From NCBI RefSeq assembly GCF_001677475.2, contig NZ_CP015229.1: 64,000 nucleotides of DNA; one strand, written 5' to 3'. The stretch is from Escherichia coli. GTDB lineage: Bacteria; Pseudomonadota; Gammaproteobacteria; Enterobacterales; Enterobacteriaceae. Each line of letters starts with the position of its first letter. Within the stretch, counting starts at the first letter, position 1. A program made the translations under genes and the position numbers. The notes beneath the pieces were generated by a model, which searched no databases, was not told the origin of the DNA, and saw nothing but the letters and a program-made list of their open reading frames with translations. Below are positions 47,667-48,073 of this stretch, one piece after another.

Positions 47667-47748
47667 CCGAGGTAAAGTCTCCCCAAACCAAATTTCCACG
47701 CGCTATCGAAACGCCACTCCATTAGCTGCAATTTGAGCAAGCAAAGGG

Positions 47749-47776
47749 TTAGAGTGTCTCGTTTTTGTAAAGTTCC
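47749..47776 (-). promoter_or_regulatory. Sigma-E-dependent rpoE promoter (P2-like)
   Basis: Minus-strand GGAACTT-N16-TCTAA, matching the sigma-E consensus, about 85 nt upstream of rpoE. Confidence 0.6.
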
Positions 47777-48073
47777 GTAACGCATCTGTTTTTGTTTGTC
47801 ATGCTGTAGACGGATCATTATCTATCATTATAAGTCTACAGAATCTGAACATCGCATTATCTGTGTAGAAATGCCCATTTAACTGCCTGAAGAGTAACCC
47901 AACGGCCTTTTTATTTCACCACCTAATCCTCCACCAGCCAGTAACTTCTCTTTTTCTCGCCGCCCTGAGTCAGCGTGTTTAGCCACTGTAACAAATATTA
48001 AAATAGCAGGTGTTTAATCGCACAACATGATGCTATGCTGACCAAACCGTGTTTAGTAAATTAAACAAAGAAA

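Follow-up and report, generated by a model that had tools for sequence, protein, structure and literature searches.

The rpoE-nadB spacer of Escherichia coli as a divergent control region with the sigma-E autoregulatory promoter P6 and a NadR operator

The rpoE and nadB genes are divergent neighbours in the 64,000-nucleotide stretch of Escherichia coli DNA that we analysed, referred to here in its full length as the window, and positions 47667-48073 are exactly the 407-bp spacer between them. The list of open reading frames placed lepA, rseC, rseB, rseA and rpoE on the minus strand and nadB on the plus strand, and the RefSeq annotation of the best-matching genome gave lepA-rseC-rseB-rseA-rpoE-rseD, divergent from nadB. 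The spacer is single-copy and chromosomal, at a minimum of 90% identity, in 5425 of 5426 complete E. coli genomes, and that of strain 7/2 is 99.8% identical to the spacer in the window. A preliminary description of this DNA, made from the sequence, had presented the spacer as a divergent control region. Its location was as described, but it is not wholly non-coding, as the RefSeq CDS of rseD covers 47663-47818. The reading frames that bound or enter the spacer are:

47666-47664, minus strand: ATG of rpoE.
From 48074, plus strand: ATG of nadB.
47818-47663, minus strand: rseD, a 51-aa leader peptide ORF (ORF list, RefSeq, PMC8595263).

We computed sequence, uniqueness, position, conservation and operator match for the elements in the spacer, and took CsrA binding, NadR binding, sigma-E dependence and start sites from the literature, the last two partly via reviews. 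The comparative set consisted of 80 rpoE loci, retrieved as one genome per species. Searches of 47000-48700 for RNA families gave no Rfam match (E <= 1). A consensus scan of both strands returned no canonical sigma-70 promoter, and because of this the promoter assignments below rest on published starts together with conservation.

The preliminary description had proposed a sigma-E promoter, GGAACTT-N16-TCTAA, on the minus strand about 85 nt upstream of rpoE. We recovered this motif from the window sequence at exact coordinates, with TCTAA lying 83-87 nt before the A of the rpoE ATG. The elements of this promoter, P6, are:

47776-47770, minus strand: P6 -35 element GGAACTT, an exact match to the consensus (PMC1312014).
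47753-47749, minus strand: P6 -10 element TCTAA, with one mismatch to the TCAAA consensus (PMC1312014).
47741-47742, minus strand: P6 start; the published -75 is C47741, and the rule of a 6-nt discriminator leads to G47742.
47787-47795, minus strand: A-tract ACAAAAACA, at -45 to -53 of P6, a conserved island in 14 Enterobacteriaceae.

The two elements are separated by a 16-nt spacer, TACAAAAACGAGACAC. The sigma-E consensus derived from 28 mapped starts consists of a -35 GGAACTT and a -10 TCAAA with a strong preference for a 16-nt spacer, and sigma-E promoters also have a 5-6-nt discriminator, a purine start and A/T-rich upstream sequence (Rhodius et al. 2006, PMC1312014). The site in the window follows these rules closely. 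Its TCAAA-like -10 stands at the preferred 16 nt, where 15-19 nt are allowed, and G47742 comes after a 6-nt discriminator, with 27 nt from GGAACTT to +1 where the rule gives 25-28. The autoregulated promoter of rpoE is known as P6, formerly rpoEP2 (PMC6358824, a review from the Raina laboratory), and its start is placed at -75 (review PMC8103513). The numbering of this start is ambiguous by 1 nt, between the published C47741 and the G47742 predicted from the purine preference. A start about 7 nt past TCTAA had been predicted from the sequence, and the published start at 47741 lies 8 nt past it; the literature thus already decides the refuting condition set for that prediction, absence of such a start, in favour of the promoter. 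Sigma-E has been published to regulate its own synthesis positively via a conserved promoter upstream of the rpoE operon, and the motif coincides with this sigma-E-dependent promoter (PMC1312014, PMC6358824), which bears out the proposed positive autoregulation of rpoE-rseABC. A/T-rich UP sequences peak at -48/-49 in sigma-E promoters (PMC1312014), and the A-tract ACAAAAACA upstream of P6 is probably a UP-like element.

Alignment of 23 Enterobacterales resolved P6 into two conserved islands, GAACTT (invariant or nearly so) and CTCnAA, between which 16 nt vary freely. At the level of sequence, this combination of conserved hexamers and a free spacer is the signature of a two-block promoter. Across 73 loci from six gammaproteobacterial groups (Enterobacterales, Vibrio, Pasteurellaceae, Aeromonas, Shewanella and other Alteromonadales), GAAC(T/A)T-N16-TCnnn was present 81-128 nt upstream of the rpoE ATG in all except one. 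Within E. coli, an identity of 99% or more was reached by the 71-nt P6 core in 5251 of the 5425 genomes and by the whole spacer in only 3181. We give practically no credence to the idea that the motif is a chance match in the rseD coding sequence and that rpoE is transcribed only from upstream sigma-70, sigma-S and sigma-54 promoters: the motif does lie inside an annotated CDS, and short two-block motifs can arise randomly, but the exact pattern occurs once on both strands of the 64-kb window where 0.01 matches are expected (100 dinucleotide-preserving shuffles), the hexamers are kept while the spacer and the rseD frame are not, the same architecture recurs at 72 of the 73 loci, and published start mapping, with sigma-E-dependent starts and in vitro validation, in effect refutes it. 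When up to two mismatches were allowed, just two more P6-like sites were found, both unrelated, with 3.3 such matches expected by chance.

A second sigma-E promoter, rseA P3, lies inside rpoE on the minus strand (GAACCC at 47319-47314, N16, TCAGA at 47297-47293). Its +1 is G47286, exactly 228 nt before the rseA ATG (47058), in agreement with the published leader length.

Five additional published rpoE promoters, P1-P5, share the spacer with P6, which is the proximal one of the six. The starts of the rpoE promoters have been placed at -381, -327 (common to P2 and P3), -218, -153 and, for P6, -75 (review PMC8103513). In window coordinates, the five additional promoters are represented by:

48047, minus strand: start of P1, the distal promoter, published as -381 (PMC8103513).
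47993, minus strand: common start of P2 (RpoN/QseF) and P3 (sigma-70/RcsB), published as -327 (PMC8103513, PMC6358824).
47889-47901, minus strand: P4 region TGgGtTACTCTtC, conserved, with the start at 47884, published as -218.
47832-47827, minus strand: perfect TATAAT, the presumed P5 -10, in the conserved island ACTTATAATGA (47835-47825).

P4 has been reported as recognised by RpoS (PMC5736990). The hexamer TACTCT (47896-47891) precedes its start at 47884 by 7 nt and, from spacing and conservation, is the probable P4 -10. Another conserved block, GgTGAAAtA at 47912-47920 on the minus strand, lies approximately 28-36 nt upstream of the P4 start; it bears no likeness to a -35 hexamer and is a possible site for a regulator. 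The P5 start at 47819 (published -153) is 8 nt past TATAAT, which we infer to be the P5 -10, and 1 nt before the rseD ATG (47818), so that rseD would have almost no leader on P5 mRNA. The P5 -10, the P5 start and the start codon of rseD all fall within an imperfect palindrome of 44 bp (47801-47844), whose 21-nt arms are 76% complementary and 2 nt apart. The corresponding RNA hairpin is weak (-11.1 kcal/mol, z = -1.6). The GAC/GTC core of the palindrome is conserved, and one apparent T-A to C-G swap is seen in Enterobacter. A search of the whole of 47667-48073 for the sigma-54 consensus TGGCAC-N5-TTGCW (GG at -24, GC at -12), in which up to 3 mismatches were allowed, found no site, and the sequence alone gives no support here to the published RpoN dependence of P2.

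On the nadB side, the following elements were identified:

48050-48067, plus strand: NadR operator TGTTTAGTAAATTAAACA, a perfect 18-bp palindrome TGTTTA-N6-TAAACA.
48031-48039, plus strand: putative extended -10 of nadB, TGcTATGCT, a conserved island in 14 Enterobacteriaceae.
47976-47993, plus strand: degenerate NadR-like box TGTTTAGCCACTGTAACA, with 2 mismatches.

The nadB promoter had been expected in this same spacer, with a NadR operator to be sought on the nadB side. The scan located a perfect box there, and the conserved extended -10 beside it points to the promoter. The box has no mismatch to the published operator consensus TGTTTA-N6-TAAACA (PMC2330245) and is unique in the window, with 0.02 expected. 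It starts 11 nt past the extended -10 and ends 6 nt before the nadB ATG, a location at the promoter of an NAD gene. NadR has been found bound to the Salmonella nadB promoter by EMSA and ChIP (PMC12421817). Its conservation makes TGcTATGCT the probable nadB promoter, with a start near 48045-48046. This predicted nadB start, at about 48046 on the plus strand, and the P1 start, at 48047 on the minus strand, face each other. Counting from the mapped P1 start, the NadR operator would cover the -10 region of P1, and given this overlap NadR might also repress P1; we found no discussion of the overlap in the accessible literature.

The operator is invariant in 14 Enterobacteriaceae, and a perfect or one-mismatch box was present in 23 of 24 Enterobacteriaceae/Erwiniaceae-type relatives (window included) that have nadB upstream of rpoE. 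In Yersiniaceae-type and Photorhabdus relatives, Vibrio, Aeromonas, Shewanella and Alteromonadales, the search next to nadB gave no box with fewer than 2 mismatches. DNA-binding NadR, with its N-terminal HTH, is restricted to Enterobacteria (PMC2330245), and the distribution of the box fits this limit, which is taken from the literature. The divergent arrangement of rpoE and nadB itself reaches Vibrio, Aeromonas, Shewanella and Alteromonadales, where the spacers are 148-558 bp and without NadR boxes (loci L033-L081); in Pasteurellaceae and several Enterobacterales, the 2.5 kb retrieved upstream of rpoE did not contain nadB.

The degenerate box TGTTTAGCCACTGTAACA is centred 74 bp from the main NadR box and overlaps the P2/P3 start, and its TGTTTAG half is invariant in Enterobacteriaceae (conserved island 47984-47977). 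A third TGTTTA half-site, TGTTTAAT at 48011-48018, has the opposite orientation to ATTAAACA at 48060-48067. TGTTTA at 48012-48017 was rejected as a NadR half-site or nadB -35, as it is not conserved outside Escherichia.

Between P6 and the rpoE start codon lie the elements of the P6 leader:

47742-47735, minus strand: the GCTTGCTC block, the first 8 nt of the P6 transcript (GCUUGCUC as RNA).
47702-47666, minus strand: rpoE translation-initiation leader, inside the conserved island 47702-47661.
47697-47695, 47682-47680 and 47668-47666, minus strand: GGA motifs of the leader, the second in the SD GGGGAG and the third overlapping the AUG.

Three CsrA sites have been reported in the rpoE leader, two of them over the SD and the AUG (PMC7652899), and CsrA binding has been assayed by EMSA on rpoE -133 to +19 (PMC5694010). 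The GGA motifs are consistent with the three published sites, where we infer which motif belongs to which site. The rpoE SD is 12 nt from the AUG. This distance fits the description of rpoE mRNA as having a distant SD and a polyamine-sensitive bulged stem (PMC4191411; also PMC4951125).

The TGA of rseD (47665-47663) overlaps the rpoE ATG (47666-47664) as ATGA, the kind of overlap looked for in a coupled leader ORF. Translational coupling of rseD and rpoE has been reported, as cited in PMC8595263. This, together with the annotation of rseD by both RefSeq and EcoCyc, would favour the view that the conservation downstream of P6 (47742-47663) comes from selection on the RseD peptide and not from promoter or RNA elements. 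We consider that view improbable. A full-length rseD frame reaching the rpoE ATG was found only in Escherichia, Citrobacter and Enterobacter sp. Ag1, so the ORF is not conserved more widely; elsewhere the frame is interrupted or has no ATG, and in other Enterobacteriaceae the ORFs upstream end 65-133 nt before rpoE. The blocks GCTTGCTC, GCGTGGA, GGGGAGAC and CCTCGGATGAGC are nevertheless conserved, and between them there are indels whose lengths are not multiples of three. Since the rseD frame is broken in most relatives while the nucleotide blocks are kept, we rejected conservation of the peptide as the cause of leader conservation, and the constraint on the leader appears to act on DNA or RNA.

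The GCTTGCTC block at the P6 start is nearly invariant in Enterobacterales. As RNA, GCUUGCUC is complementary to GAGCGAGC, which consists of the G of the rpoE start codon and the 7 nt that follow it (47664-47657), and a helix between the 5' end of the transcript and the start codon was predicted both by the MFE fold of the single sequence and by the RNAalifold consensus. The duplex has an energy of about -17 kcal/mol (shuffle p about 0.004) and ranks in the best 1% or so of windows in the same loci. Pairing between GCUUGCUC and GAGCGAGC was strong and non-random in 29 of 31 Enterobacterales.

The block at +1 to +8 could instead be a DNA-level element, either an initial-transcribed-sequence preference or a regulator site, and not the arm of an RNA helix. 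We put this at slightly short of an even chance. Both arms of the helix are nearly invariant, and there is no true (double) compensatory change within Enterobacterales, where the 3' arm is invariant coding sequence. The fold of the whole leader is no more stable than that of shuffled sequences (z = -0.39), and duplex energies gave no significant pairing in five outgroup clades; these points speak for a DNA element. Against it, the internal pairs of the 5' arm carry 11 sequence-level substitutions, each of them one-sided and compatible with pairing (C to U opposite G; A to G opposite U), and pairing is broken in just three alignment cells, two at the terminal pair and one an internal mismatch in Siccibacter. 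The energy of the duplex relative to other windows also speaks against a DNA element, as does the general sigma-E promoter logo, from which GCTTGCTC is absent and in which +1 is only weakly conserved (PMC1312014). A helix common to the Gammaproteobacteria was considered and rejected: MFE folds were suggestive in Aeromonas, Shewanella and some Alteromonadales, but duplex energies were similar to those of shuffles or other windows (median p about 0.2-0.4). That the 5' end of the P6 transcript is complementary to the rpoE start region is a modest, possibly new lead restricted to Enterobacterales; no description of it was found in the accessible literature.

If the helix forms, it would close the whole P6 leader, occlude the start codon and leave no single-stranded 5' end. 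Translation of rseD could open the helix on transcripts from P1-P5. Because P6 sits inside rseD, P6 transcripts lack the rseD start codon and would be unable to open the helix in this way. Yakhnin et al. in 2017 are said to have found that rpoE translation falls by more than half when the coupling of rseD and rpoE is lost. A doubtful but conceivable consequence of the model is that the helix makes P6 rpoE mRNA intrinsically less translatable, and perhaps more stable, than mRNA from the housekeeping promoters, which would build a brake into the sigma-E positive feedback, tunable by CsrA and polyamines. If this were true, promoter choice would set the translatability of rpoE; we found no description of such a promoter-specific difference in the accessible literature.

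Taken as a whole, the spacer is almost certainly the divergent control region of rpoE and nadB, with GGAACTT-N16-TCTAA as P6 of the rseD-rpoE-rseA-rseB-rseC operon and a NadR operator on the nadB side. On envelope stress RseA is degraded, and the freed sigma-E binds core RNA polymerase, recognises P6 as the holoenzyme and starts transcription at about 47741/47742. The P6 transcript then supplies more sigma-E, as positive feedback, and more RseA and RseB, as delayed negative feedback. This feedback is reinforced by rseA P3 inside rpoE (+1 at 47286), and CsrA sites over the SD and AUG modulate translation from the P6 leader of about 75 nt. Transcription of nadB would most likely be driven by the extended -10 at 48031-48039 and repressed by NadR at 48050-48067, just downstream of the predicted start.

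The sigma-E autoregulatory promoter of rpoE is textbook knowledge. It ranks with the best-studied alternative-sigma promoters of E. coli, having been mapped in the 1990s and characterised again in 2006 and 2016. P6 has a central place in the response to envelope stress, a response that E. coli K-12 cannot do without (PMC1312014), and confirmation of the promoter here adds no new biology. Working without tools, a reader had nonetheless located a promoter that is real and functional, and the prediction of a NadR operator was also right. That reading of the region was right as far as it went and left out five rpoE promoters, rseD and the control of the leader by CsrA and polyamines. The region is denser than first described, with six rpoE promoters, a leader ORF, CsrA sites and a NadR operator that would overlap P1.

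Compared with the operators of nadA-pnuC, pncB and nadB (PMC2330245, PMC12421817), the NadR operator described here is the same perfect 18-bp palindrome, placed directly upstream of nadB; unlike other NadR operators, it would also overlap the P1 -10 region on the opposite strand. The autoregulated AlgU/RpoE promoters of other Gammaproteobacteria share GAACTT-N16-TCnnn upstream of the sigma gene and are mostly divergent from nadB too. Their -10 elements are GTCnnA-like (TCACA, TCTGA, TCAGA, TCTAC), and these outgroup loci differ in having neither a NadR box nor complementarity between GCTTGCTC and the start codon. Relative to the sigma-E regulon promoters, P6 is set apart by TCTAA in place of TCAAA, by its location in a small ORF and by the rpoE-specific block at +1 to +8, whereas it shares with rpoH P3 and the others a perfect -35, a 16-nt spacer, a 6-nt discriminator and an A-rich upstream tract. 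With the E. coli rpoE P6 described previously (PMC1312014; reviews PMC6358824, PMC5736990) it agrees without difference in locus, sequence, spacing and start.
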